The notes beneath the pieces are model-generated. The model saw only the letters and a list, made by a program, of their open reading frames with translations. It was not told the DNA's origin and did no database searches. Positions 16,389 to 58,793 of a stretch of 64,000 nucleotides of DNA are shown one piece after another. The position numbers and the translations under genes were made by a program. The DNA is from Candidatus Iainarchaeum sp. GTDB lineage: Archaea; Iainarchaeota; Iainarchaeia; Iainarchaeales; DTGL01. Location of the stretch: positions 76,933-140,932 of the forward strand of contig JAVYME010000001.1 of NCBI GenBank assembly GCA_038736825.1, read 5' to 3'. Each line of letters begins with the position of its first letter. Position 1 is the stretch's first letter.

Positions 16389-17639
16389 TTGTGCATTACA
16401 TTGCATTGTTTTGACTCTTGTGAAGGTGAAAAATTGGAAAAATCTGGAAAAAAAGGAACTATCGTGTTTTTACTAATTACACTTTTAGTTGCACAAGTTT
16501 TTGCTGCAGATTGCCTGGATTGGATGGAATCACAATCTGGAAAAGAAGTGGGAGACAATATGAATGATGACGGCGTTTTAGGACCTGGGGAAACACTCGC
16601 AAATAATAAAACAAATAAGCCTGGAGAAATCGGAGTTAATAATGCAAGTACTGTTAAACAAATTGGCGAGAACTACATTAATGGCTCAACTGTGCCTGTA
16701 ACAATATCAAACGATAATGGCACAACAGTACAGACAGACCCAAACCTAAAATATGAACTCACTCCAATTTGGGGTTACAGCAAAGAGTACGGATTTTACG
16801 TTAGCGGTTGGAAAGTCAGTGCTGTGGAAGAGGAAACTGAAAAAGATCTGGATTTTGGTGAGGGTTGGACTCCAGTTAGTCCGACTCCAAAGCCTGTGAC
16901 CCCTACTCCAACTCCAACGATAACTCTAACGCCAACACCTACGCTAACCCCTCTCCCAAACCAAGCACCAACCGCAGACTTTGAAATGTATCCAGAGCCA
17001 GCAAATGGCATGGTTCCTTTGACTGTAAAGTTTAAAGATAAAAGTTTTGACCCAGACGGTTCCATTGTTTCATGGAATTGGGAGTTCGGGGTAGGTACAA
17101 TTGAAGGAACAAATTGTTGCACAAATAAGGAAACAAGCCATGTTTACACTTCAGCTGGCTATTATACTGTCCGGCTAACCGTAACAGACAACTTGGGGGC
17201 AACAGCATCTAATCAAAAATCTATAATTGCAATACAAAAAGCGGCAATAACAATTTTCAAATCAAACAATCCAGAAAACCCAAACCAGCCAGCACAAATT
17301 ATTATTGCATGCGGCAAGCAGGCAGCCCTCCAATTGGAATTCCTTGACAAGGACAGCCAGCCACTTTCCGGAGTTCCAACTCAACTAATGGATGGAGCTC
17401 ACGGCCTGCCATTTTGCAATATCACACCTACAATTCTCAACATAACTGGCTTTCCAAAACCAGGGCTTTATCAAATAAAGGCAAACATTCTTGGAGAGGA
17501 GTGCACTAATTGTCCAAAAACGATCCACATAGTTGTCGGTCAAGAAATGCCAGAACTCCAAACTCCAGAAATCCCAGCAATACTAACCGCAGTAATCGCA
17601 CTTGCAGTGATTGTCATCACAAACAGGAAAAAGAAATAA
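16389..17639 (+). CDS. secreted surface protein with Thr/Pro linker, PKD domain and conserved C-terminal sorting signal (PEIPAIL-TM-NRKKK)
   Basis: Signal peptide (alternative TTG start at 16434). TPTPKPVTPTPTPTITLTPTPTLTP linker. PKD-type domain (PTADFEMYP...GMVPLTVKF...WNWEFG). The C-terminal ~35 aa are almost identical to the 27182..29317 protein. Confidence 0.75.
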   Translation: MCITLHCFDSCEGEKLEKSGKKGTIVFLLITLLVAQVFAADCLDWMESQSGKEVGDNMNDDGVLGPGETLANNKTNKPGEIGVNNASTVKQIGENYINGSTVPVTISNDNGTTVQTDPNLKYELTPIWGYSKEYGFYVSGWKVSAVEEETEKDLDFGEGWTPVSPTPKPVTPTPTPTITLTPTPTLTPLPNQAPTADFEMYPEPANGMVPLTVKFKDKSFDPDGSIVSWNWEFGVGTIEGTNCCTNKETSHVYTSAGYYTVRLTVTDNLGATASNQKSIIAIQKAAITIFKSNNPENPNQPAQIIIACGKQAALQLEFLDKDSQPLSGVPTQLMDGAHGLPFCNITPTILNITGFPKPGLYQIKANILGEECTNCPKTIHIVVGQEMPELQTPEIPAILTAVIALAVIVITNRKKK

Positions 17640-17700: not shown

Positions 17701-19275
17701 CTATTTTTTTCCTTTTTTTTCTTGTGTTGATTTTTTTAACAATAGTTCTCTTTCTTGTTGTAGTTTGAGGAGTCTTTCCCTGTAAGCGCTTTCTGAAAGC
17801 CGTCTCTTGAAAAAATCCAGTTTTGCTTTTTTTTCAAGTTCTGAAATTTTTTCAAGGCGCCTTTCAATGGAGCGCTTTTCCAGTTGCTTGAGTTTTTTTC
17901 TCCAAAAAAATGCTGAAATTGAAAGAATTAAGGCTGTTATTCCGCCTCCAAAAACAATTATTTTGCCCCAATCTATGGGTTCAATTATTTCTGTTGAAAT
18001 CTTTGCTTTTCCTGAAAAAGGCGGTTTTAAAACAATTTCAATGGTGTGGGTTCCCTGTAAAGCAAATGGCAGGCTTGCAGAGCAAAAGCCTTTTTCAGTG
18101 CAGGAAAGAGTAATTGAGTGCTGTTTTTCGTCAATGTAAAGCAATGCTTCAACCTCATTGCTTGCAACTTGTTGTCCTTCCACTTGTACTTCTATTTTTG
18201 TAGCTCCGCCACGACTTTCAGTTCTGCCTTCCATTGGGAAAACGAACAAAACCTGGTTTTCAGTCGGGCTTGCCCCTTCTGGAGAAAGCATTTCAAGAGA
18301 AAAACTGTTTTTTTCAGTTTTTGTTCCAGAAGCGTTTTTGCCTGAAACAGTTATCTTCAATTCACTGTCTTTCTCGCTAACGGGGCGCGTGAATTCTGCA
18401 CTCCAGGCTCCTCCTGCAAAAGACAATTTTTTTCTTTCCAGTATTTTTTCTTTTGACAAAAGCCAAGCCTCAAAATCCCCGCTGTTGACAACAGTTTCTT
18501 TTTGGTGAAGAGAAAAGGAAATTTTTCCAACAGGCGAGCCAAAAAAATATTTCTGTTCTTCATTGAAGGGATTGCGGACTTGAATGGTTGCTGGCTTGAA
18601 GAAAAGCGGAATGAAAAAAGTTTTTTCCTTTGAGCCTGCAAGCGCTGCCTTCAATTCCAGTTTTTCAAATTCTTCAAAGGAAGCGTCTGGAACAAAAGAG
18701 CCTTCCAAAAAAAGGTTTTTGGAATCCCATTGCAAGGCAATGCTTTTGCCTTTTATTAAGGCACTAAAATGGGAAAAGGCTTCCTTTTCACTTGAACCCA
18801 AAAACCTTTGAATGTAGGAATTGTCTTTGTCCAAGAAAGCAATACGTATCTTTTTTTCAACTCCTGTTTCGATTGCAATATCCTGTCTTGCCTCTGAAGA
18901 GGGCGGCAAAAATGCTTTGAATTCAGTTCTCGTGATTCGCACTGGCACTGTTTTTTCCCCTAAAAGCATGCCGTTGTCCTTAAGCTTTATTTGTGCTTTT
19001 ACTTGAAAGGTTTTCGGGGAAAAATCTATTGCTTCAAGGTAATATGCATGGCTTGCAAAAGGGCTTTCGGTTGAAATTTCAGTGCCATCCCCAAAACTCC
19101 AAACAAAATCCAAAACGCTTTCAGGAAAATTTTCCAGCTTTAAATTGAAATCCACTGCTTGCGCTTCAAATGCCTCGCTAGTGCTCGCTGAAAGCCCGAA
19201 ATCAAGCGAGCTATGGGCAAATGGCAAAAGCAAGAAAAGAAAGGCTGCCAAAAAAAGGCTTTTTGCCATTTTCAC
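17701..19275 (-). CDS. type-I membrane surface protein (PKD-like repeats) with coiled-coil K/E/R-rich cytoplasmic tail
   Basis: N-terminal signal peptide, WSFGDGTE PKD-like motif and a C-terminal TM (ITALILSISAFFW). The tail LEKKAKLDFFKRRLSESAYRERLLKL is homologous to the tail of the upstream 1059-aa protein. Its stop overlaps the next gene's start by 4 nt. Confidence 0.7.
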   Translation of the reverse strand: MKMAKSLFLAAFLFLLLPFAHSSLDFGLSASTSEAFEAQAVDFNLKLENFPESVLDFVWSFGDGTEISTESPFASHAYYLEAIDFSPKTFQVKAQIKLKDNGMLLGEKTVPVRITRTEFKAFLPPSSEARQDIAIETGVEKKIRIAFLDKDNSYIQRFLGSSEKEAFSHFSALIKGKSIALQWDSKNLFLEGSFVPDASFEEFEKLELKAALAGSKEKTFFIPLFFKPATIQVRNPFNEEQKYFFGSPVGKISFSLHQKETVVNSGDFEAWLLSKEKILERKKLSFAGGAWSAEFTRPVSEKDSELKITVSGKNASGTKTEKNSFSLEMLSPEGASPTENQVLFVFPMEGRTESRGGATKIEVQVEGQQVASNEVEALLYIDEKQHSITLSCTEKGFCSASLPFALQGTHTIEIVLKPPFSGKAKISTEIIEPIDWGKIIVFGGGITALILSISAFFWRKKLKQLEKRSIERRLEKISELEKKAKLDFFKRRLSESAYRERLLKLQQERELLLKKSTQEKKGKK

Positions 19276-22200
19276 CTCTCCTTGTAAAGCCTTGCCAAAA
19301 CCATTTCAATTACTTTTTCACTATAGCCCTCGTTTCTAAGCCCTCTTGCCACCTCTTCTCTTGAAAACTCTCCGATTCTTCCGCAAAGTCTTGTTGTGAG
19401 CACTATGGCTTGAACTTTTTCAGGCGCTTTCTTGAAATCCTTTGAGGGAAAAACTGTTTTCCAAAAGCCTGTTTTAATCCAAAAACCGCTTTTTAATAGA
19501 GAATCAATGCATTTCAGTCCTTTGCTTAAAAGCCTTATTTGTTCGCCGAGCTCGCTTTCAGAAATATGCCTTTTGAAAAACTCAAACTTGTATTTTTTCT
19601 CCAGTCCAGTCAAGCGCTCTTTTTCCCTAAGCAAGAAAGCCCTTTCAGAAAAAACATTTCTTAAAAGCAATGCAAGGAAAACCAGGATTACAATGCAAGC
19701 AAAACCGAAAGCCAGCAAAGCAAGGCTTAAGCCTTGCTCAATGGTTGCAATAACTGTTCCTTCTCCAGAAAAATCTTCTTTTAAAACAAGCTTGAGTGAA
19801 TGCGTTCCAGCCAGCAAGGGCGAACTCAAAACCCCCTTGTGCAATTTTTCTTTTTCGTCAAACTTGAGTGAAACAGGCTGCAGGTTGCCGTCAACCAGCA
19901 AATCGCTGTTCAATGCAATGTTGGCAAACAAGTGGTTGTTGGGCTGGAAAAACCTAACACTTATCTCGCTTATTTTGCCATTCCAGGGCTTGTTCAAGCC
20001 AGCGCTGGGTTGAACAAAAACCATTTGCAGGTTGTTTGAAAGTGAAATTGTTAAAAACTCTAAATCCATCAATTCTTTGCCGTCAAGAGTGGCGTGTGCT
20101 TCAAGCCGGCAGCTCACGCTTTTTTTGCCAGAATCCTGCAATGGCAAAAGGATTTTCGCAGAATATTGCTGGCTTTCTTTATCAAAATCCATTTCCTCCA
20201 AAAAATCCAGTTCAGGGCATTCCACAATGATTTTTTTGTTTTTAACCTTGTAATTGTCTGAAAGAATTTTTGCCTTCAAGTTAACTGTTTGCCCGAAAGC
20301 ATACTCGCGCTCACTGTTCACTGGCTCCAATATTGAAATAACCAGTGCCGAGTTTTTTGCAAGCGGAACCGCTTGCACTTCATCAACCTTGTTGCCTGCA
20401 GCATCCCTGCCCTTCAATTTCAACTTTAAACCATGCAAAAAATCGGTTTCATTCACAGTATGGTCAAAATAAAGCGTGTAATCAAACTCGTTTTTTTCAA
20501 TTCTCACTTCTTCCTCTTTTTTGCCTGAAACAAGCACTGCCCTTAACTCGCTTGGAAAAACCACGATTATGCCGTTCAACAAAAACATTACTTTGGCTTT
20601 TTCAAGGGAATCAAGCAAAAAATATTTTTTGCCCTTGAAGACATTGGTTGCCTTGAAAAAAGAAGGCTCAAAAAACACTGGCGCTTTTGCATGGAACTCG
20701 CGCTTTTCCCCCTTAACCTCACTCAAAGCATGAATTTCCAAGAATTCAGTTTCAGAAAGCGAACTCCAAGGCTTAAAAATTCCCTCAAAAATTGTTCCAG
20801 AACAATGCATTTCAACCAGCGAGCCAGCAAGCAAAACCCTGAGCGAAATTCCTTGACAAGCAATCCTTTCATCGGCTTCATCCAAAAACTCCAAGCGCAC
20901 ATTCAAATCCCTTTGCTTTGAATTTGTCTGCACATGGGTTGGCTCCAAAACTCTTGCCTTAAACTTGGACTTTAAAACCTTAACCTTAACCTCTGCGCCT
21001 GCAGTCTGCCCTTTGGAATCACTAACGCGAACCTTCACCAAAAACTCTCGCTCTTTCTCCAAACCCAAAAAATAAGCGTGAAATGCCTCTCTCTGGCTTG
21101 CATTAGAGTCATCACCGAAATCCCAGAAAAATTCAAGCGACTCTTCATTCAAAGCATTAGTGATTGCAGTGAAATAAAAATATTGTCCTTCAAATTGCTG
21201 CCTGCTTTCAGGGTCAACCAGTACTGTCAAAACCTGCAATGGCTCGTCCTTTAAAGAAGTTTTAAAGGACAAAACAGGGCTTTCCCTTGAAAGGCTTTGC
21301 GTTGAAGAAACTGCCTTGAAAAAATAGTTTGTTTCCGGTTTCAATCCAAGCAAGTGGATTTTGTGGTGAATTGTTTTAGTGCCGTCAAAAACCCTTGAAC
21401 CCAAAGCACTGGTTTCACCGAACTCCACTGCAGAATCGGATTGCACTAAAGTGTTCCAGTAAACCTTTGCATGAGTGGCAAAAGCAAAAACCTGAACATT
21501 TTTTGGATCAATATCCTGCAATCCTGCTTTCAAAATGCAGCGGTTTTCTTGACTGCAATAAAAGCCTTCCTCGCACTTTGCAGTGCAATCAATTTTTTGC
21601 CCGCAATTATTGCTTTTAGAACCACACTCGCTCTCGGAACACGAAAGGGCTTTGCAGCATTTTCCATTAATGCAATTCCAGCCAGCACTGCAAGAGCACT
21701 GAATTGTGCCACCGCAATCATTTGAAAAAGAACCGCATTGTCCTGCAAAATCCCTTGAACACGACTTGCAGGATTGCAAGCATTTCCCGTTCAAGCAACC
21801 CCCCGAACAAAACTCGCTTTCAATCCTCGAGCAATCCGCATTAGAGTAAACCCTTGTAGAACCAGAACAAAACCATCCTTGAACACAAGGTTGAAGCAAA
21901 CCACTAGAAGCAGCACTAGAACCCTGTGGTTTGCACTCAGGACACAAAGAACTGCCATCACCTGATTGTGATAAATTTTGTCCTGGCATTTGATAAACAG
22001 CTGCAGGAGAGCCCTTAGCTTTTGATTGCAAATAATCATCATATGGGTCGCCCCCCTTAGACAAATCCTCATAAGAACCACCGGCAGGTGCCGCTCCATC
22101 ATCTTGTCCTAGCTCATTTACTCCTCCTGTAGCTCCTGTTTGACTCAAGCCATCATCATTTTGGACAAAAGTTGGAGTGGAAGCGCCATCAGCAGCCCCG

Positions 22201-22451
22201 CTAGGCAAACTTGGGCCAGGCGAGTTGTTAGTTGGGGGATTGAGTGCGTCGTCTGAAACAGGGCAATCTGGACAGTAGTATGCGCCTGTGCCTTCGGTTA
22301 CAGCAAAATATGCTGTTTTTTCTTTAGGCAAGGCTAATGAAAAGAAACCGGTTTTTTCGCTTAAAATGGTTTCATAAAACAGCCAGGTTATGGCTAGCAC
22401 TAAAACTATTGCCAACAAAAAGGCAGGCTTTTTTGAAAAAACTGAAGGCAT
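19272..22451 (-). CDS. giant type-I membrane surface protein: acidic G/D/S/P-rich region, Cys-rich EGF/laminin-like module, FN3/PKD-like repeats, TM and ~150-aa cytoplasmic tail
   Basis: 1059 aa with signal anchor and a run of CxxxxC repeats (CSGGCLNGKCLQSCKSC...CGQKIDCTAKCEEGFYC). WDFGDDSNA PKD-like and PETNYFFKAVS FN3-like motifs. C-terminal TM followed by LEKKYKFEFFKRHISESELGEQIRLL. Confidence 0.75.
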   Translation of the reverse strand: MPSVFSKKPAFLLAIVLVLAITWLFYETILSEKTGFFSLALPKEKTAYFAVTEGTGAYYCPDCPVSDDALNPPTNNSPGPSLPSGAADGASTPTFVQNDDGLSQTGATGGVNELGQDDGAAPAGGSYEDLSKGGDPYDDYLQSKAKGSPAAVYQMPGQNLSQSGDGSSLCPECKPQGSSAASSGLLQPCVQGWFCSGSTRVYSNADCSRIESEFCSGGCLNGKCLQSCKSCSRDFAGQCGSFSNDCGGTIQCSCSAGWNCINGKCCKALSCSESECGSKSNNCGQKIDCTAKCEEGFYCSQENRCILKAGLQDIDPKNVQVFAFATHAKVYWNTLVQSDSAVEFGETSALGSRVFDGTKTIHHKIHLLGLKPETNYFFKAVSSTQSLSRESPVLSFKTSLKDEPLQVLTVLVDPESRQQFEGQYFYFTAITNALNEESLEFFWDFGDDSNASQREAFHAYFLGLEKEREFLVKVRVSDSKGQTAGAEVKVKVLKSKFKARVLEPTHVQTNSKQRDLNVRLEFLDEADERIACQGISLRVLLAGSLVEMHCSGTIFEGIFKPWSSLSETEFLEIHALSEVKGEKREFHAKAPVFFEPSFFKATNVFKGKKYFLLDSLEKAKVMFLLNGIIVVFPSELRAVLVSGKKEEEVRIEKNEFDYTLYFDHTVNETDFLHGLKLKLKGRDAAGNKVDEVQAVPLAKNSALVISILEPVNSEREYAFGQTVNLKAKILSDNYKVKNKKIIVECPELDFLEEMDFDKESQQYSAKILLPLQDSGKKSVSCRLEAHATLDGKELMDLEFLTISLSNNLQMVFVQPSAGLNKPWNGKISEISVRFFQPNNHLFANIALNSDLLVDGNLQPVSLKFDEKEKLHKGVLSSPLLAGTHSLKLVLKEDFSGEGTVIATIEQGLSLALLAFGFACIVILVFLALLLRNVFSERAFLLREKERLTGLEKKYKFEFFKRHISESELGEQIRLLSKGLKCIDSLLKSGFWIKTGFWKTVFPSKDFKKAPEKVQAIVLTTRLCGRIGEFSREEVARGLRNEGYSEKVIEMVLARLYKER

Positions 22452-25457: not shown

Positions 25458-25895
25458 ATGGATTTTTTTTTGGGTTCAGACCATGGCGGGTATCCCTTAA
25501 AGGAAAAAGTCAAAAAATGGCTGGAAAGCGAAGGCCATTCAATAAAAGATTTTGGCTGTTTTTCAGTGGAAAGCTGTGATTATCCCGAGTTTGCTGAAAA
25601 GGTTGCAAGAGCAGTTACAAAAAATAAAGATTCAATTGGATTGCTTTTTTGCGGCACTGGAATTGGCATGAGCATTGCAGCAAACAAAATCAAGGGAATA
25701 CGGGCAGCACTCTTGCATAACGCTTTTGAGGGAAAAATGGCAAAAGAGCACAACAATGCAAACGTGCTCTGCTTTGGAGGCAGAACTGTTTCTTTCAGGA
25801 ATGCAAAAAAGGCAATCACTGCTTTTTTAAAGGCAGAATTTGTGGGCGGCAGGCATTTGCGGAGAATAGAAAAAATTGCAGCACTCGAGAGATGA
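25458..25895 (+). CDS. rpiB: ribose-5-phosphate isomerase B (RpiB/LacA family)
   Basis: LGSDHGGYPLKE...FCGTGIGMSIAANKIKGIRAAL is characteristic of RpiB. 145 aa. Confidence 0.9.
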   Translation: MDFFLGSDHGGYPLKEKVKKWLESEGHSIKDFGCFSVESCDYPEFAEKVARAVTKNKDSIGLLFCGTGIGMSIAANKIKGIRAALLHNAFEGKMAKEHNNANVLCFGGRTVSFRNAKKAITAFLKAEFVGGRHLRRIEKIAALER

Positions 25896-26317
25896 AAATG
25901 TTTGAATTGTTTGAGCACAAGGCAGACATTGGAGTGCGCGGTTATGGAAAAACGCTTGAAGAAGCCTTTCAAGAGTGCGCGAAGGCAATGTTCAGCGTAA
26001 TGTCAAACCTGAAAAAAGTCAAAGCCAGAGAAAGCATTGAATTGCGAGTTAGAGCGAGAAATGAAGAAGAATTGCTTGTTGCCTGGTTAAACGAATTATT
26101 GTTTGAAAAAGGCACAAAAGAAATGCTGTTCTCTGAATTCAAAGTGAAAATTTCAAAGGAAAAAGAAGGACTGGTTTTGAAAGGCACAGTGAAAGGCGAA
26201 AAAATGAACCACAAAAAACATGAAATGAAAACAGAAGTCAAAGGAGCAACCTATTCTGGCTTGAAAGTGATTAAAGAAAAAGAAAAGTATTTAGCGCAAT
26301 GCATTGTCGATGTATAA
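25892..26317 (+). CDS. archease (RtcB ligase activator)
   Basis: MFELFEHKADIGVRGYGKTLEEAFQECAKAMFSVM matches the archease N-terminal signature. 141 aa. Overlaps the rpiB stop. Confidence 0.85.
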   Translation: MKMFELFEHKADIGVRGYGKTLEEAFQECAKAMFSVMSNLKKVKARESIELRVRARNEEELLVAWLNELLFEKGTKEMLFSEFKVKISKEKEGLVLKGTVKGEKMNHKKHEMKTEVKGATYSGLKVIKEKEKYLAQCIVDV

Positions 26318-29383: not shown

Positions 29384-30826
29384 ATGGCATTGTTAAAAAT
29401 AAGGGATTTTGTTTGGGAAATCCCGAAAGAGGGAAAAATGCGCGTTCCAGCAAGGCTTTACGTGGACCAAAAAATGATTCAAGAACTGGAACGCGAAGAG
29501 CAAACCAATTGGAGCACTTTAAGGCAGTTGAAAAACATTGCTTCCCTGCCTGGCATTCAAAGCCCTGCACTGGCTTTGGCTGACTGCCATCCAGGTTATG
29601 GCGCGCCAATTGGCAGTGTTGCCGCCATGGATTTAAAGGAAGGCGTTATTTCTTTTGGATGCATTGGGTTTGATGTGAATTGTGGAGTGCGCACTCTTGC
29701 AACCCTGTTAAAAAAAAGCGAAGTGGAGAAAAGGAAAAAAGAGCTTGCAGAAGAGCTTTTCAAAAACGTGCCAGCAGGGCTTGGCGTTACAGGAAAACTC
29801 AAATTAAGCCAAAGCGAAATTGACGAGGTTTTAGTGAAAGGCGCTGAATTTTCCCTTGCAAAAGGTTATGGTTTCAAAGAGGACTTGGAGTTCATTGAAA
29901 TGAATGGAAAAGCAAGGGACGCAAACCCGGAAAATGTTTCGCTCAAGGCAAAACAAAGACAGTTCAAGGAAGTCGGCACTCTTGGTTCAGGCAATCATTA
30001 CCTGGAAGTGCAATTCGTGGAAAAAATATTCGATGAAGAAATCGCACAAGCCTTTGGATTGTTTGAAGGGCAAATCGTTGCAAGCATTCACTGTGGAAGC
30101 AGGGCATTGGGCCACCAGATTGGCGCAGACTATCTGGTGGAACTGAAAAAAGCCTCAGAAAAATACAAATTGCATTTGGCAGACCCTGAACTGGTGTCAG
30201 CGCCAATTGAAAGCGAAGAGGGAAAAAAATATTTTTCCGCTGTGAGCGCTGGAATGAATTGCGCTTTTGCAAACAGGCAGGTTTTAGCACACCTTGCAAG
30301 GGAATCCTTTGCAAGGGTTTTTGGAGTGAATGAAAGGGAAATACGGACTTTTTACGAGGTTGGCCATAATACTGCAAAAATAGAAGAGCATGAAGTGGAA
30401 GGAAAGCAAAAGGAATTGCTTGTGCAAAGAAAAGGCTCTACAAGGGGTTTTGGCCCTGAAAGGAAAGAAGTGCCAGCACAGTATAGAAAGTTTGGACAGC
30501 CAGTACTGGTTGGCGGGACAATGGGCACTGCCAGCTATGTTTTGGCTGGAACAATAAAAGGAATGAAGGAAACCTTTGGTTCGGCAGTGCATGGTGCTGG
30601 AAGAAAACTTAGCCGGAATGCAGCAATCAAGTCTTTCAAGGGAGAACAAATTGCAACAGAATTGAACAAAAAGGGAATAATAATCAAAACGCATTCATGG
30701 AAAGGCATTTCAGAGGAAGCTCCTCAAGCTTACAAGGACATAGATGAAGTAATAGAAATAATGGCTGTCACAGGAATCAGCAGAAAAGTTGCAAGGCTCA
30801 AGCCAATGATAACAATAAAGGGATGA
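29384..30826 (+). CDS. rtcB: RNA-splicing ligase RtcB
   Basis: GSGNHYLEVQ..., HCGSRALGHQ and HNTAKIEEHE motifs. 480 aa. Confidence 0.93.
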   Translation: MALLKIRDFVWEIPKEGKMRVPARLYVDQKMIQELEREEQTNWSTLRQLKNIASLPGIQSPALALADCHPGYGAPIGSVAAMDLKEGVISFGCIGFDVNCGVRTLATLLKKSEVEKRKKELAEELFKNVPAGLGVTGKLKLSQSEIDEVLVKGAEFSLAKGYGFKEDLEFIEMNGKARDANPENVSLKAKQRQFKEVGTLGSGNHYLEVQFVEKIFDEEIAQAFGLFEGQIVASIHCGSRALGHQIGADYLVELKKASEKYKLHLADPELVSAPIESEEGKKYFSAVSAGMNCAFANRQVLAHLARESFARVFGVNEREIRTFYEVGHNTAKIEEHEVEGKQKELLVQRKGSTRGFGPERKEVPAQYRKFGQPVLVGGTMGTASYVLAGTIKGMKETFGSAVHGAGRKLSRNAAIKSFKGEQIATELNKKGIIIKTHSWKGISEEAPQAYKDIDEVIEIMAVTGISRKVARLKPMITIKG

Positions 30827-45859: not shown

Positions 45860-47272
45860 ATGGGCATAGTTGACGCACTGGAACCCATTTATTCCATTCT
45901 TCCTGAAGTGAAAACCCCAGAAGTGGCTCCCCCGCTCAAAAAAAAGATAATGTGGAGTGCAGCAGCCCTGCTGATATTCTTTATTTTGGGCAGAATTTGG
46001 CTTGTGGGAATACCAAAAGAAGACCTAAACCAGTACAACCAACTGTTAGCGTTCCAAGAACTGCTGGCAAGCGAAACTGGAACACTTTTGACTGCAGGAA
46101 TCGGCCCAATAGTTTTCGCTTCAATCATACTGCAATTGCTGGTTGGAGCAAAAATAATAGAAATAGACTTAACTGACCCAAAAGGCAAAGCCAAATTCCA
46201 GGGAATGCAAAAGCTTTTCACTATAGCAATGTGCTTTTTTGAAGGCATTATTTATCCGCTCAGTGGAATGCTGGGCCCCAATATTGGTTTTTCCAGTGCA
46301 GTCTTTTTGGGATTGCAAATAGCACTGGGCTCAATGATATTGTTGTATCTTGATGAAGTTGTAGGCAAATACGGAATTGGCTCCGGAATAGGATTGTTCA
46401 TTGCCGGAGGTGTAACGCAAAGCTTTTTCTGGCAGGTTTTCAGACCGCCATTATTTGAAAGCGAAGGCTTGGCTCCCGGAATAATCTGGCGTTTCATGTC
46501 AACACCAAACTTAATACTATTGCTTCCAATAATAGTTGCAATAATCATTTTCGCAATAATTGTTTACGCTGACGCAATCCATGTAAACATTCCAATAACA
46601 ATGGGCAGAAGAGGCTTTGGCGGCAGATATCCTGTAAGCCTCTTGTATGTCAGTGTAATGCCAGTAATACTGGCAGTAGCGCTTTTTGCAAACATTCGGC
46701 TGTGGGGCTCACTTGTATCTAATGTGCCGTTTGTTGGTGATGCAATGCGTTATCTTATATGGGCTACGGGCAATCCAGTAAGCGCTCCTGGCTGGCAATA
46801 CTTTGATTCATACATTTACAATTTATTTCCAGAACTAATAACTCAAATTGGAGCTTCAGGTTTTGAAATACTTGGAACAGTGGCCTGGCAAATGAGAATA
46901 TTGCAAGGCATTGTCTACCTTTTATTTTTGTGCATAACCTGCGTTGTTTTCGGCAAATTTTGGGTTAAAATGGGCGGCCAGAGCTCAGAAGACATTGCAG
47001 AACAGCTTGAAAGCTCTGGCATGTATGTTCCAGGCTTTAGGAGAGACAGCAGGATAATAGAGAAAATCCTTGACAGATACATTCCCCCAATAGTTGTAAT
47101 AGGCTCAATATTTGTAGCATTGCTTGCCGGAATAGGCAATATGACTCTCACTTCTGTAACCTCTGGAACAGGCATTCTTTTGACAGTTGGAATAGTCTAC
47201 AAATTGTACGAGCAAATTGCAAGAGAGCAAGCCAAAGAGTCAAGCGTGCTCTTGAAAAAACTTTTCATTTAG
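45860..47272 (+). CDS. secY: preprotein translocase subunit SecY (Sec61alpha)
   Basis: 470 aa, 10 TM. Conserved position after L15. Confidence 0.92.
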   Translation: MGIVDALEPIYSILPEVKTPEVAPPLKKKIMWSAAALLIFFILGRIWLVGIPKEDLNQYNQLLAFQELLASETGTLLTAGIGPIVFASIILQLLVGAKIIEIDLTDPKGKAKFQGMQKLFTIAMCFFEGIIYPLSGMLGPNIGFSSAVFLGLQIALGSMILLYLDEVVGKYGIGSGIGLFIAGGVTQSFFWQVFRPPLFESEGLAPGIIWRFMSTPNLILLLPIIVAIIIFAIIVYADAIHVNIPITMGRRGFGGRYPVSLLYVSVMPVILAVALFANIRLWGSLVSNVPFVGDAMRYLIWATGNPVSAPGWQYFDSYIYNLFPELITQIGASGFEILGTVAWQMRILQGIVYLLFLCITCVVFGKFWVKMGGQSSEDIAEQLESSGMYVPGFRRDSRIIEKILDRYIPPIVVIGSIFVALLAGIGNMTLTSVTSGTGILLTVGIVYKLYEQIAREQAKESSVLLKKLFI

Positions 47273-47354
47273 GAGGGAAAAGGTTTTATAATCATGGCTT
47301 TAAAAATATTATAATGGCGCCCAAAAGGGCTTTTCTGCATTTTTTGGTGGTTTT

Positions 47355-47801
47355 ATGGTGTTTATTGACCCACTTATAGAAGTTGCAATAATTGCAATTG
47401 CACTGGTAGCATTCAGCACTTTTATAAGAAACCGCTTTATGGACAAAGAAGCGGAAAAAGGCATGAAGGAAAAACAAAAAGAATTCAAAGAACTCTTAAA
47501 AAGCAAGGACAAAGCCTCAATGAAAAGACTGGAAGAAGTGCAAAAGGAACTGCTTGAACTGCAATACAAGGTCATGAGAAGCTCTATTCCCTCCATGCTC
47601 GTAATGCTTGGAGTGTTTTTCCTCCTATTACCCATAATGAATTCAAGTTATGGAGGCATACAATTCCCGCCAGCACCCTACATAGTGCTTCCAGGGCAAA
47701 GCTGGATATGGTATTACATTCTCATAGGACTAATGGTTTCAATAGCGGTTGCAATCGGAAAAAAAATAATGAAAAAAAACAAGGAAACAAAAACAGAGTG
47801 A
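47355..47801 (+). CDS. DUF106 family membrane protein (archaeal YidC/Oxa1/EMC3-like insertase homologue)
   Basis: 148 aa with three TM helices and a coiled-coil loop. Occupies the conserved archaeal position downstream of secY. Confidence 0.7.
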   Translation: MVFIDPLIEVAIIAIALVAFSTFIRNRFMDKEAEKGMKEKQKEFKELLKSKDKASMKRLEEVQKELLELQYKVMRSSIPSMLVMLGVFFLLLPIMNSSYGGIQFPPAPYIVLPGQSWIWYYILIGLMVSIAVAIGKKIMKKNKETKTE

Positions 47802-47805
47802 TTTT

Positions 47806-48147
47806 ATGCCAAAACAAAGGGAAACCAGGAAAAAAAAGGTTTTCAGGAAAACCCCTGGCGGTAAAACCAAAACAGCCTTCCTGAAAAGGCGCACTTCAAG
47901 AAAAAAATGCTCTGTATGCGGCAAAAAAATCAGCGGAACACTTCCTGCAAAAAAAGAAGCAAAAGCCAGCAAAACAGAAAAAAGACCTTCAGCACCACTT
48001 GCCGGCATACTTTGCAATTCATGCAGGGCAATTGCAGTGGAGGAAGCATTAAAGGTAAAGGAAGGCATTAAAAAGGAAAGCGAAGTGGAACTGCGCTTTA
48101 GGAAATACGCGCTTTCAGTCCTAAGCGGAATCAAAGGAGGGCTATAA
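47806..48147 (+). CDS. rpl34e: ribosomal protein L34e
   Basis: ...FRKTPGGKTKTAFLKRRTSRKKCSVCGKKISG. Confidence 0.85.
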   Translation: MPKQRETRKKKVFRKTPGGKTKTAFLKRRTSRKKCSVCGKKISGTLPAKKEAKASKTEKRPSAPLAGILCNSCRAIAVEEALKVKEGIKKESEVELRFRKYALSVLSGIKGGL

Positions 48148-48151
48148 AAAA

Positions 48152-48673
48152 ATGATTTTGGCAATTACAGGTTTGCCCGGGACTGACACCAGGAACCTGT
48201 GCAAAAGCCTGGCATTGCAGCTCGGCATAAAGTATTTGCCAAAAGAAAAAATCCTTGAAAAAACACTGGAGGAAAAAAAGGGCGGAGGAAAAAAAGAAGA
48301 AACAGAATTGAGCGAAGAATTCGTTCAAAAGCTAAGGCAGGCAATACTCGCAGAAGCAAAACAGGACCACATAATAATAGACTGGGGCCTTGCAACATGG
48401 GTTTTGAACGAAGCAGACCTAAAAGTGTTCATTCTGTCCAAGCAAAAAAACCGCGCAATGGAAATTACAAAGGCAAAAAAAATTCCCTTTGTTGAAGCAA
48501 AACAGGAATTGGAAGAAATGGAGGAGGAAGAAAGAAAAAAACTCTTGCATTTTCTCGGCGTTAACATTCATGACTTGAAATACTTTGACTTGGTAATAAA
48601 CGCAGACAAGCTTGAAATGGAAGGAATAACAGCAATAATAATGAAATTCATGAAAAACTTTAAGGTGAAATGA
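48152..48673 (+). CDS. cmk: archaeal cytidylate kinase-like protein with degenerate P-loop
   Basis: Cmk-family C-terminal half is present. The N-terminal Walker A reads ITGLPGTDTRN instead of the canonical G-PGSGKTT, so the catalytic Lys is absent. Confidence 0.65.
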   Translation: MILAITGLPGTDTRNLCKSLALQLGIKYLPKEKILEKTLEEKKGGGKKEETELSEEFVQKLRQAILAEAKQDHIIIDWGLATWVLNEADLKVFILSKQKNRAMEITKAKKIPFVEAKQELEEMEEEERKKLLHFLGVNIHDLKYFDLVINADKLEMEGITAIIMKFMKNFKVK

Positions 48674-48975
48674 TGCCCGCAATAGAAATAGGCAGAGTGT
48701 GTTATCTTGAAAGGGGCAGGAATGCAGGCACAAAAGCCATAATTGCCGAAAAACCAGAAGGCACAATCGTTACAGTGCTTGTTGGTGGAAAAAGAAAAAA
48801 ATGCAATATCAGGCACTTGTTTCCAACAAAGGAAATTGTTGACATTAGAGAAATAAAAGAAGCAAAAGTTGAAGAAAAAAAAGCAGAAAAACCAGAAAAA
48901 CCAAAACAAGAAAAGAAAAGGAAAGAAAAAAATAAAGAAAAGGCAAAAGAAGCCAAAAAAAAGAAAAAAAAGTGA
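48670..48975 (+). CDS. rpl14e: ribosomal protein L14e (KOW) with K/E-rich C-terminal tail
   Basis: EIGRVCYLERGRNAGTKAIIAEKPEGTIVTVLVGGKRKKCNIRHL. Confidence 0.85.
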   Translation: MMPAIEIGRVCYLERGRNAGTKAIIAEKPEGTIVTVLVGGKRKKCNIRHLFPTKEIVDIREIKEAKVEEKKAEKPEKPKQEKKRKEKNKEKAKEAKKKKKK

Positions 48976-48992: not shown

Positions 48993-49526
48993 ATGTGGAA
49001 AGGGAAAAAAATGAAACAAGAAACCGCAAAAGAAGAAATGCGCTACATTGTAAGGATTGCAGGAAAAGACCTTGACGGCACCAAACCAATATTTTCAGCC
49101 TTAAGGGGAATAAAAGGAATAAGCCACAGGTTTGCAAGAGTTGCAGCAATACAATTCGAAAAAGAAACAGGCATCAAATTCGATTCAAGGCTTGGAACAA
49201 TTCCAGAAAACCACGACAAAACCCTTGAAGCAATAATAACCGAACCAGAAAAGCACGGTTTTCCAGAATGGATGCTTAACAGGAGAAAAGACTTTTACAC
49301 TGGAAAAAGCAGCCACCTAATCATGGGCGACCTAGACTTTGCAAAAAGAGAAGACATCAAAAGACTCAACATAATAAAAAGCTATAGGGGCTTAAGGCAC
49401 AGCTGGGGCTTGCCAGTAAGAGGGCAAAGAACAAAAAGCACTCACAGAGGCAAAGGCCCAGTAGTCGGAGTCATGAAAAAAGAAGCCAAAAAGGGTGGCG
49501 GCGGCCAAAAAAAAGAAGGAAAGTGA
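48993..49526 (+). CDS. rps13: ribosomal protein S13
   Basis: YIVRIAGKDLDGTKPIFSALRGIKGISHRFA... Confidence 0.9.
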   Translation: MWKGKKMKQETAKEEMRYIVRIAGKDLDGTKPIFSALRGIKGISHRFARVAAIQFEKETGIKFDSRLGTIPENHDKTLEAIITEPEKHGFPEWMLNRRKDFYTGKSSHLIMGDLDFAKREDIKRLNIIKSYRGLRHSWGLPVRGQRTKSTHRGKGPVVGVMKKEAKKGGGGQKKEGK

Positions 49527-49532
49527 CAATAA

Positions 49533-50282
49533 ATGGGCGACCCCAAACGGCAGAAAAAACACTATGAGCGACCCAAAAAAATCTGGGATAAAGCAAAAGT
49601 GGAAGAAAGAAGGCATTTCACAGAAGCCTATGGCTTGAAAAACAAGAGGGAAATCTGGAAAAGCGAAACATTCCTGAGAAAAAAAAGAGCCAGTGCAAGA
49701 AAGCTTTTAGCACAACCAGTGGAAACAAGAAAACAAAGAGAAAAAGAACTATTGGAAAGCCTATTGAAAGTAGGCATCTTGAAAAAAAATGCAACACTGG
49801 ACGACGTGCTCGGCCTAAAAGTAGAAGCAGTGCTGGAAAGAAGACTGCAAACAATAGTTTGGAAGCAAGGACTGGCAGCCACGCTTAAACAGGCAAGACA
49901 ACTAATAACACATGGACACATTGGAATAAACGGAAAAAAAATAACCGCTCCAGGCTACATTGTAAGAAAAGACGAAGAAACAAAAATAGGGTTTTTGGAC
50001 AAAGCACTGGAAATAAAAATAAAAAAAGCAGCGCAAAAGAAAAAAGAAACCTTGAAACCAGAAGGAAAAGGCGCAGAAAACAAGCCAGTGGAAACAAAAA
50101 CAGTCGCTCAAGAAACAATGCCGAAAGAGGAAAAAACTGAAAAAAAAGAAGACATTGAAAAAGAAAAACCAGAAAAAAAGGAAAGCAAAGCAAAACCAGA
50201 GCAAGCAAAAACAGAAAAACCGCACAAAAAAGAAACAATCCAGAGAAAAAAAACAGGCAAGGAAGGGCAAAAAGGAGAGTGA
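49533..50282 (+). CDS. rps4: ribosomal protein S4 with ~90-aa K/E-rich C-terminal extension
   Basis: GDPKRQKKHYERPKK... and the S4 domain (RLQTIVWKQGLAATLKQARQLITHGHIGINGKKITAPGYIV). The tail is lysine/glutamate low-complexity. Confidence 0.9.
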   Translation: MGDPKRQKKHYERPKKIWDKAKVEERRHFTEAYGLKNKREIWKSETFLRKKRASARKLLAQPVETRKQREKELLESLLKVGILKKNATLDDVLGLKVEAVLERRLQTIVWKQGLAATLKQARQLITHGHIGINGKKITAPGYIVRKDEETKIGFLDKALEIKIKKAAQKKKETLKPEGKGAENKPVETKTVAQETMPKEEKTEKKEDIEKEKPEKKESKAKPEQAKTEKPHKKETIQRKKTGKEGQKGE

Positions 50283-51457: not shown

Positions 51458-51581
51458 GCAGGAGTACCCAAGCGGCCAAAGGGGCAGGACTTAAGAAAAT
51501 GCTCAAAAAAAAACCCGGCATTTAAAGGTTGAGATATCCTGTGGCTTAGTGCCTTCGGGGGTTCGAATCCTCCCTCCTGCA
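51458..51581 (+). tRNA. tRNA-Leu (anticodon UAA) with ~39-nt intron at the canonical 37/38 position
   Basis: Acceptor stem GCAGGAG/CTCCTGC with discriminator A. D-arm with GG. Anticodon stem CAGGA/TCCTG, loop CTTAAGA. Insertion aaatgctcaaaaaaaaacccggcatttaaaggttgagat contains a CTCAA/TTGAG helix. Long variable arm TGGCTTAGTGCCTTC. T-arm GGGGG-TTCGAAT-CCTCC. No encoded CCA. Confidence 0.8.
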
Positions 51582-58134: not shown

Positions 58135-58350
58135 GTGAAGTGCTCTTTTTGCGGAAAAGAAATATTGGATGGCACCGGCACAATGTTTGTTTTCAGGACT
58201 GGAAAAAGATACCATTTTTGCTCCAAAAAATGCGAAAAAAACATGCTAAAACTCGGTCGCAAGCCATCCAGACAGAAATGGACAGAATTGGGCAGATCAG
58301 AGCGAAAACCTGAAAAGGCAAGTGCAGACAAAAAGAAAAAAGGTGACTGA
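58135..58350 (+). CDS. rpl24e: ribosomal protein L24e
   Basis: VKCSFCGKEILDGTGTMFVFRTGKRYHFCSKKCEKN. GTG start. Confidence 0.9.
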   Translation: MKCSFCGKEILDGTGTMFVFRTGKRYHFCSKKCEKNMLKLGRKPSRQKWTELGRSERKPEKASADKKKKGD

Positions 58351-58355
58351 AAAAA

Positions 58356-58793
58356 ATGCAGTTCAAAGTCAAAGTTCAAAAAACCTGTGCTTGGGCAAAA
58401 CTCCCAGAAATGGCACACAAGGGCGATTCCGGCTTTGACCTTTTTGCAAGCGAAACCGTTTTATTGAAACCAGGGGAAAGAAAACTGGTTGGAACAGGAT
58501 TGAAAATGGAAATGCCTGAAGGCATAGAGGCACAAGTAAGGCCTAAAAGCGGGCTTGCAATAAACTATGGCATTTCAGTGCTCAATTCGCCTGGAACTGT
58601 TGATTCAGGATACCGTGGCGAAGTGAAAGTAATTCTTGCAAATTTTGGGGAAAAAGATTTTTTGGTTGAAAAAGGCTCAAAAATAGCACAAATGGTTTTT
58701 GCAAGAGTGGAATGCCCTGAATTTGAAGAAACCCTGAAATTGAATGAAACCAAGAGAAGCAATGGTGGTTTTGGCTCAACCGGCTTAAAGTGA
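58356..58793 (+). CDS. dut: dUTP diphosphatase
   Basis: AHKGDSGFDLFA...RPKSGLAINYGISVLNSPGTVDSGYRGEV matches trimeric dUTPase motifs. Confidence 0.88.
   Translation: MQFKVKVQKTCAWAKLPEMAHKGDSGFDLFASETVLLKPGERKLVGTGLKMEMPEGIEAQVRPKSGLAINYGISVLNSPGTVDSGYRGEVKVILANFGEKDFLVEKGSKIAQMVFARVECPEFEETLKLNETKRSNGGFGSTGLK

Follow-up and report, generated by a model that had tools for sequence, protein, structure and literature searches.

The gene studied here lies in a 64,000-nucleotide (nt) stretch of Candidatus Iainarchaeum DNA (the window; assembly GCA_038736825.1, contig JAVYME010000001.1), inside a co-directional ribosomal super-operon that runs L18-S5-L30-L15-SecY, EMC3/DUF106, L34e, a cytidylate kinase (Cmk)-like open reading frame (ORF), L14e and S13-S4-S11-RpoD onward (Table 1). 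The Cmk-like ORF, which a preliminary description of this DNA had reported as carrying a destroyed phosphate-binding loop (P-loop), is present at the place described and codes for 173 amino acids (aa). It is tightly packed between its neighbors, given that the L34e stop codon is followed by a 4-nt gap, with a Shine-Dalgarno-like GGAGG inside the L34e 3' end 11 nt before the ATG, and that its own TGA shares the sequence ATGA with the ATG of L14e, a 4-nt overlap that is preceded, still within the Cmk-like 3' end, by a Shine-Dalgarno-like AAGGTGA for L14e. Judged from the gap and the overlap, the gene is predicted to be obligatorily co-transcribed with L34e and L14e, and it is probably also translationally coupled to both. 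The comparisons reported below suggest that it encodes a lineage-wide pseudoenzyme derived from the archaeal Cmk.

Table 1. Features of the window discussed in the text, with positions counted from its first nucleotide
Feature	Position	Strand	Basis or remark
PKD-domain ORF	16389-17639		upstream of archease
PKD-domain ORF	19272-22451		upstream of archease
Archease gene	25892-26317
RNA ligase RtcB gene	29384-30826
secY	45860-47272	+	Pfam SecY 2.2e-62
Spacer between secY and EMC3/DUF106, 82 nt	47273-47354		ORF list; adk position of some archaea, empty here
EMC3/TMCO1-like (DUF106) membrane protein gene	47355-47801	+	PF01956 2.9e-09
Ribosomal protein L34e gene	47806-48147	+	PF01199 4.6e-10
Shine-Dalgarno-like GGAGG	48136-48140
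Cmk-like gene (putative Cmk-derived pseudoenzyme), 173 aa	48152-48673	+	predicted nucleoside monophosphate kinase fold; 5/21 signature residues
Degenerate P-loop codons, G7-L-P-G-T-D-T-R-N15	48170-48196	+	sequence and homologue comparison
D77-W78-G79 codons, in place of the [DE]-G-R motif	48380-48388	+	W78 invariant in close clade
Ribosomal protein L14e gene	48670-48975	+	position and tblastn conservation with L14e beside canonical Cmk
Ribosomal protein S13 gene	48993-49526	+	opens the S13-S4-S11-rpoD block of the operon; synteny and Pfam of orthologous loci
Ribosomal protein S4 gene	49533-50282		249 aa
tRNA, 124 nt	51458-51581	+	Rfam 41.6 bits, E 1.6e-06; between rpoD and L18e
L18e ORF, GTG start as listed	51549		probably false start
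Ribosomal protein L24e gene	58135-58350
dUTPase gene	58356-58793

The protein was matched by Pfam PF13189 (Cytidylate_kin2) with an E-value of 2.4e-15 and 57.6 bits against a gathering threshold of 28. The NCBIfam model TIGR02173 (cyt_kin_arch) aligned with it from end to end (residues 1-165 on model positions 1-166 of 169, E 2.6e-23), with a score of 82.8 bits that lies below the curated cut-off of 102.1 bits for equivalog membership. Pairwise BLASTP gave 30% identity with a canonical Cmk over the full length. The Cmk-like identity proposed earlier is therefore upheld, in the form of a full-length homologue of the archaeal-type (d)CMP kinases (cytidine monophosphate, CMP; TIGR02173, Pfam PF13189/PF02224), with which the window protein is collinear and of equal length, and shares the predicted fold, the operon slot, the hydrophobic core and the residues K18, K91, R101, D141, D146 and N150. 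Membership of the Fap7/AK6 family was rejected, given that NF003012 reached 28.6 bits against a cut-off of 152, over residues 1-92 only, and that the protein has no GKT.

A structural model obtained with AlphaFold2 from a 141-sequence alignment, which replaced a shallow alignment of 14 sequences whose predicted local distance difference test (pLDDT) score of 44.5 was unusable, has a pLDDT of 86.2, a predicted template modelling (TM) score of 0.79 and the five-strand alpha/beta topology of nucleoside monophosphate (NMP) kinases, with residues 44-50 as the sole disordered stretch. According to this model, the NMP-kinase fold is kept. A Foldseek search of the PDB with the model returned the bacterial PF13189 proteins 3hdt and 3fdi as best structural matches (TM score about 0.8, E 7e-12 to 7e-10), then bacterial Cmk and then the Fap7-Rps14 complex (TM score 0.65), while the best PDB matches by sequence were bacterial Cmk and uncharacterised PF13189 proteins. 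Like the window protein, 3hdt and 3fdi have a non-canonical loop (GSGG, without Lys) and a C-terminal YDLxINT motif, but they are only 16-20% identical to it, bacterial and encoded outside ribosomal operons, and they give no mechanistic lead.

The Walker A segment reads GLPGTDTRN at residues 7-15, as originally noted, and departs from the pattern G-x-x-G-x-G-[KT]-[ST]-[TS]. No GK[ST] is restored by the other frames, one of which has a stop whereas the other reads VCPGLTPGT. The preliminary description had placed its emphasis on the loss of an invariant Walker lysine, and this part of it does not stand, given that Lys occupies column 13 in 68% of 117 canonical representatives and Thr does so in 20%. 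The Thr-for-Lys forms (GSGTTT, GAGTTT and GSGTST, as in P0039, P0044, P0045, P0056, P0063 and P0072) keep 19-20 of the 21 signature residues defined below and, unlike the window protein, which likewise has Thr at position 13, all of the arginines; they are presumably active enzymes. Smaller groups of archaeal Cmk have GSGKN[ST] or G[ST]GKD[ST] loops. Loss of the lysine alone is thus not diagnostic of inactivity, because about 20% of the intact family lacks it, which indicates that the catalytic rules of this family are poorly understood; no biochemical work on an archaeal Cmk was found in a full-text literature search. As far as can be judged from the residues, the weight of the argument lies instead on the replacement of G12 by Asp, Asn or Glu together with the loss of most of the arginines.

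These losses were quantified on a MAFFT alignment of 152 family members, in which 21 columns define the canonical family (in window numbering G7, G10, G12, K13, T14, T15, G32, R36, D58, D62, G78, R79, R101, R104, R108, R123, R130, Y135, D138, D141 and D146). Canonical archaeal Cmk keep 18-20 of these residues, the intermediate sequence P0020 (GPPGSGATT) keeps 13, the members of the wider degenerate clade keep 3-8, and the window protein keeps five, namely G7, G10, R101, D141 and D146. Position 12 is Gly in 100% of the 117 canonical sequences, and is Asp in the window protein and Asp, Asn or Glu in the degenerate clade. Positions 14 and 15 are Ser or Thr in 94% and 93% of the canonical sequences, respectively, and the triplet Lys/Thr-Ser/Thr-Thr has become Thr-Arg-Asn in the window. 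In place of the NMP-site motif S-x-G-x-x-F-R, the window protein reads P-K-E-K-I-L-E, with G32 replaced by Glu; R36 is replaced by Glu in the MAFFT alignment, whereas BLASTP sets K37 opposite the Arg, and the state of this residue is therefore ambiguous. Apart from this K37/E36 discrepancy, pairwise BLASTP against canonical Cmk reproduces the MAFFT correspondences. D58 is replaced by Val and D62 by Arg (Arg or Lys in the clade), and the [DE]-G-R motif that follows strand 3 is replaced by D-W-G, which removes both G78 and R79 (now Gly) and introduces a Trp that is invariant in the close clade. In the LID and C-terminal set formed by R101, R104, R108, R123, R130 and Y135, the sole survivor is R101: the Arg that 99% of canonical sequences have at position 104 is replaced by Glu in the window protein and by Glu or Lys in the degenerate clade, R108 has become Ala, R123 Met and Y135 Leu, and R130 has become Lys at a position that varies among the relatives. 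The window clade has in turn invariant residues of its own that set it apart from archaeal Cmk (T11, D12, N15, Q23, D72-H73, W78, K97, K99, P112-F113, K117, K153 and K165).

Across the 18 polar signature positions the net charge is +2.4 in canonical Cmk, and falls to -1.1 and -0.7 in the close and the far clade, respectively. The substrate cleft has thus gone from net positive to neutral or negative, because the arginines that hold the phosphates were replaced, several of them by acidic residues. Over the whole protein, the median isoelectric point (pI) and the net charge show no difference from those of canonical Cmk, and there is no sign of a gain of RNA binding; a gain in basic charge, considered as such a sign, is thus unsupported. 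Clear homology with an enzyme combined with the loss of near-invariant residues (5 of 21, versus 18-20 of 21) classes the window protein as a predicted pseudoenzyme, and productive binding of adenosine triphosphate (ATP) and CMP, together with catalysis, has probably been lost.

The degenerate loop is not peculiar to this genome. NCBI holds an identical protein under the name 'cytidylate kinase family protein' from a Candidatus Diapherotrites archaeon, and 13 further proteins with 64-79% identity were found in independent NCBI, JGI, ENA and Logan assemblies, 10 of them with an identical loop and the other three with a difference at a single position, such that G-[LPQ]-P-G-T-[DN]-T-[RK]-N is common to all 14 close sequences. 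The codons of the loop vary synonymously between assemblies (GGT/GGC/GGG, TTG/CTT/CTC/CTG and CCC/CCT/CCG). Six species-representative genomes, all named Candidatus Iainarchaeum, have the gene, with the loop GLPGTDTRN in the three closest, GLPGSNTAN in two at 51% identity and SLPGSGVED in one at 46%. In a profile search of 1.84 billion representative proteins, about 30 more sequences with degenerate loops ranked first (SYPGTETKE, GWPGTNTRN, AYPGSDIER, FMPETKVEA and SNGYEDIEP among them, with x-P-G-T-[DE]-T-[KR]-[NE] being frequent) and canonical archaeal Cmk ranked below. A neighbor-joining tree, which is indicative only given that long-branch effects are possible, unites the 33 degenerate sequences in a single clade from which canonical sequences are absent. 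Few of these sequences carry taxonomic labels, and every labelled member belongs to Iainarchaeota/Diapherotrites; a profile word-index search for more labels gained few extra sequences, all of them unlabelled. The degenerate P-loop is therefore a property of the lineage.

The loops also suggest a path by which this state could have been reached. GSGTTT is probably the ancestral state of the Iainarchaeota loop, by way of GSG[AV]xx forms (P0020, P0016 and L006), and T13 of the window protein may have been inherited from such an ancestor. The loops GSGATT (P0020), GSGVED/GSGVEK (L006, P0016) and G[ST][DNE]T[KR][NE] have the appearance of consecutive stages, of which P0020 may mark one. On L007 (positions 1-1669), three short ORFs come after P0020, and two of them match the L14e, S13 and S4 of the window by tblastn. 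Elsewhere in the family, P0029, P0030, P0033 and P0037 (355-379 aa) each contain two Cmk-like stretches, by tandem duplication or fusion.

The gene is clearly no pseudogene but one on which purifying selection acts. The ratio of nonsynonymous to synonymous substitution rates (dN/dS, Nei-Gojobori) is 0.12 between L001 and L002 (dS 0.25), 0.18 between L004 and L005 (dS 0.11) and 0.09 between the window and L001. With increasing distance, the identity of the Cmk-like protein tracks or exceeds that of its neighbors L34e, L14e and DUF106, being 66% in L003 (versus 56%, 61% and 41%, respectively) and 38% in L013 (versus 46%, 42% and 34%). The gene is retained in relatives whose SecY is only 50% identical, and more than 30 homologues, with lengths of 147-184 aa, have neither a frameshift nor an internal stop.

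The position of the gene is equally conserved. The order L15-SecY-EMC3-L34e-X-L14e-S13-S4, with X being the Cmk-like gene, was found in all eight related loci, down to 35% identity; these comprise six from Iainarchaeum (L001-L006) and the far-degenerate L008 and L013, the SecY of which is 50-52% identical. A canonical Cmk fills the same slot between L34e and L14e in L014, in agreement with the conserved archaeal slot proposed for this gene, and follows EMC3 in L009, L011 and L015. As to the adenylate kinase gene (adk), the preliminary description was right that it is missing after secY, both in the window, where 82 nt between SecY and EMC3/DUF106 leave no room for it, and in all eight related loci, where the two genes are directly adjacent (spacers of about 90-135 nt in L001-L006, tighter in L008 and L013). 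That adk usually lies at this place was borne out in one of three canonical contexts: in L009, with a GKTT Cmk, a 181-aa AAA_17/AAA_18 kinase separates SecY from EMC3, whereas L011 and L015, which have GSGTTT Cmk, have no such kinase there. The L14e protein of the window has itself a weak Pfam match. Both L14e (101 aa) and S4 have long Lys/Glu-rich C-terminal tails, and given that L14e is only 76-78 aa long in the farther relatives L008 and L013, its tail is specific to the close clade.

Taken together, we consider it probable, with moderate confidence, that the window protein is a Cmk-derived pseudoenzyme that acts as a non-catalytic binding protein, with a possible link to the ribosome or to translation. 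The non-catalytic role that had been suggested at the outset is the most economical reading of at least eight losses beyond the P-loop (G32, D58, D62, R79, R104, R108, R123 and Y135) in a gene with dN/dS of 0.1-0.18. According to this proposal, a (d)CMP kinase in its ancestral slot would have kept its fold and lost phosphate binding and transfer, with a side chain, usually acidic, filling the phosphate-binding turn and most of the phosphate arginines gone, and the protein would have been kept as a binder. The likeliest role would lie in the production of ribosomes or in translation, where the protein might chaperone, or pair with, a basic ribosomal protein, much as Fap7 does with uS11. It could be speculated that the conserved pair of Asp/Glu12 and Arg/Lys14 mimics a bound phosphate and locks the loop.

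The more specific proposal of a role in ribosome biogenesis or translation is tentative and, taken by itself, less likely than not, although we see no likelier role. It is put forward because expression of the gene is locked to that of ribosomal proteins, because a basic peptide would fit a neutral or acidic cleft better than a nucleotide would, and because Fap7, which has the same fold, chaperones uS11 (PDB 4cvn). Fap7/AK6 (hCINAP; PDB 4cvn and 4cw7) is an ATPase that provides a precedent for the NMP-kinase fold acting on a ribosomal protein, and the uS11 gene is three genes downstream of the Cmk-like gene in the window. Unlike the window protein, Fap7 has a canonical GxxGxGKT loop and requires ATP, which makes the relation one of analogy and not of membership.

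Several observations weigh against this interpretation. The ribosomal link comes from operon position only, in a protein with the pI and net charge of a canonical Cmk, and inheritance of the ancestral cmk slot would explain that position equally well. The P-loop rules of a family in which about 20% of intact members lack the Walker lysine are looser than those of textbook kinases, and the position just after the canonical Lys has a conserved basic residue (R/K14). K37 may also substitute for R36 in a remodelled site, subject to the placement of the gap. Finally, a sequence search of the PDB found no structure of an archaeal-type Cmk.

Inheritance of the slot is also the starting point of an alternative in which the protein is a non-catalytic ligand sensor or regulator unrelated to the ribosome, its place in the operon having come from the canonical ancestor. 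Purifying selection together with the loss of catalytic residues, and a surface that has gained no basic charge, agree with such a sensor. We nonetheless regard it as unlikely, since the residues that bind both nucleotides are lost, which makes the obvious ligands improbable, and the tight translational coupling to L34e and L14e has been kept in all relatives.

That the protein is still an NMP kinase, acting on CMP or on another substrate through a remodelled site in which R/K14 and K37 replace Lys13 and Arg36, appears improbable. The loop is strictly conserved, without drift, and keeps its basic residue at position 14; intact members of the family tolerate the change of Lys to Thr; all close relatives have K or R in the place of K37, which BLASTP aligns with the NMP-site Arg; and D77, R101, D141 and D146 are kept. 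Against these stand the Asp, Asn or Glu that occupies the phosphate-binding turn in place of the universal G12, the loss of R104, R108, R123 and R79 with no conserved basic replacement nearby, and the inverted charge of the cleft. Furthermore, in far members the loop decays beyond recognition (FMPETKVEA, SNGYEDIEP), whereas the protein and its slot persist.

It is very improbable that the gene is in decay and retained as a mere spacer for the ribosome-binding site and the translational coupling of L14e. The AAGGTGA and the L14e ATG do lie inside the Cmk-like 3' end, and DPANN genomes are undergoing reduction (PMC6349945), but 520 nt of dead sequence would be expected to disappear from a streamlined genome, and the low dN/dS applies to the whole length of a gene that has intact ORFs in more than 30 homologues, keeps its length and is as conserved as its ribosomal neighbors down to 50% SecY identity. 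A sequencing or assembly error in the first 60 nt, in favor of which there is nothing but the metagenome-assembled source, is refuted because the same loop recurs through different codons in the independent NCBI, JGI, ENA and Logan assemblies and no alternative frame contains GK[ST].

A Cmk-derived pseudoenzyme spread across a lineage appears to be undescribed, given that a full-text literature search found no description of the degenerate archaeal Cmk clade and no report of an association of Cmk with the ribosome. The pattern is clean, but pseudoenzymes are common. In the databases, the degenerate proteins are labelled 'cytidylate kinase family protein' or 'cytidylate kinase', and metabolic reconstructions would accordingly assign to Iainarchaeota a CMP kinase reaction against which the sequence speaks. 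A presumably dead enzyme under selection in a streamlined DPANN genome is a natural experiment on why nucleotide-kinase genes sit in ribosomal operons, and bears on whether Fap7 was followed by a second recruitment of the NMP-kinase fold to a non-metabolic role. Bacterial cmk is likewise co-transcribed with rpsA. One explanation, which we offer as a conjecture with little likelihood attached to it, is that archaeal Cmk has a second, non-catalytic function in ribosome production that accounts for the presence of cmk in ribosomal operons, and that Iainarchaeota kept only this function after giving up the kinase activity, perhaps because their CMP enters a salvage route such as the AMP-phosphorylase/RuBisCO one described in a Diapherotrite (PMC5905446). 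If so, the Iainarchaeota protein would be a natural separation-of-function variant, making the hidden function directly testable.

Concerning the reduced nucleotide metabolism suggested in the preliminary description, for which 64 kb is too short a basis, a six-frame scan of the window for [AG]xxxxGK[ST] returned only translation GTPases and an AAA_14 ATPase, with no NMP-kinase-like ORF, and Pfam scans of 20 non-ribosomal ORFs of the window found no NMP kinase, with dUTPase being the only match related to nucleotides. The dUTPase gene follows L24e after a 5-nt gap and is followed by infB. In the DPANN archaeon GW2011_AR10, the order is L7ae-S28e-L24e-ndk-dUTPase-infB (PMC10833476), and by comparison with it ndk is absent from the slot between L24e and dUTPase here, being the second nucleotide-kinase gene missing from a position that it uses in some other archaea. 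Many DPANN lack nucleotide biosynthesis, which some Diapherotrites may possess (PMC6349945), and one Diapherotrite relies on RuBisCO-based nucleotide salvage through the AMP-phosphorylase/RuBisCO route (PMC5905446). By analogy, such a salvage route could have made re-phosphorylation of CMP dispensable.

Rfam found one tRNA in the window, where ARAGORN found none. Its length of 124 nt implies that it presumably contains an intron, and the GTG start of the L18e ORF as listed is probably false because it overlaps the tRNA. GW2011_AR10 has a tRNA-Leu at the corresponding position (PMC10833476). The genes for archease and the RNA ligase RtcB are about 3 kb apart. Between them lie an ORF without assignment and the gene of a secreted-looking protein that has PKD and VWA domains, and upstream of archease there are two more PKD-domain ORFs. 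The window as a whole (1-64000) reproduces the super-cluster of GW2011_AR10, with the str/L30e, S10-spc, alpha/L18e and L7ae clusters in one run (PMC10833476). The same study raised the question of whether that arrangement is an assembly artefact; the fact that an independent assembly shows it again here speaks for a real super-cluster.

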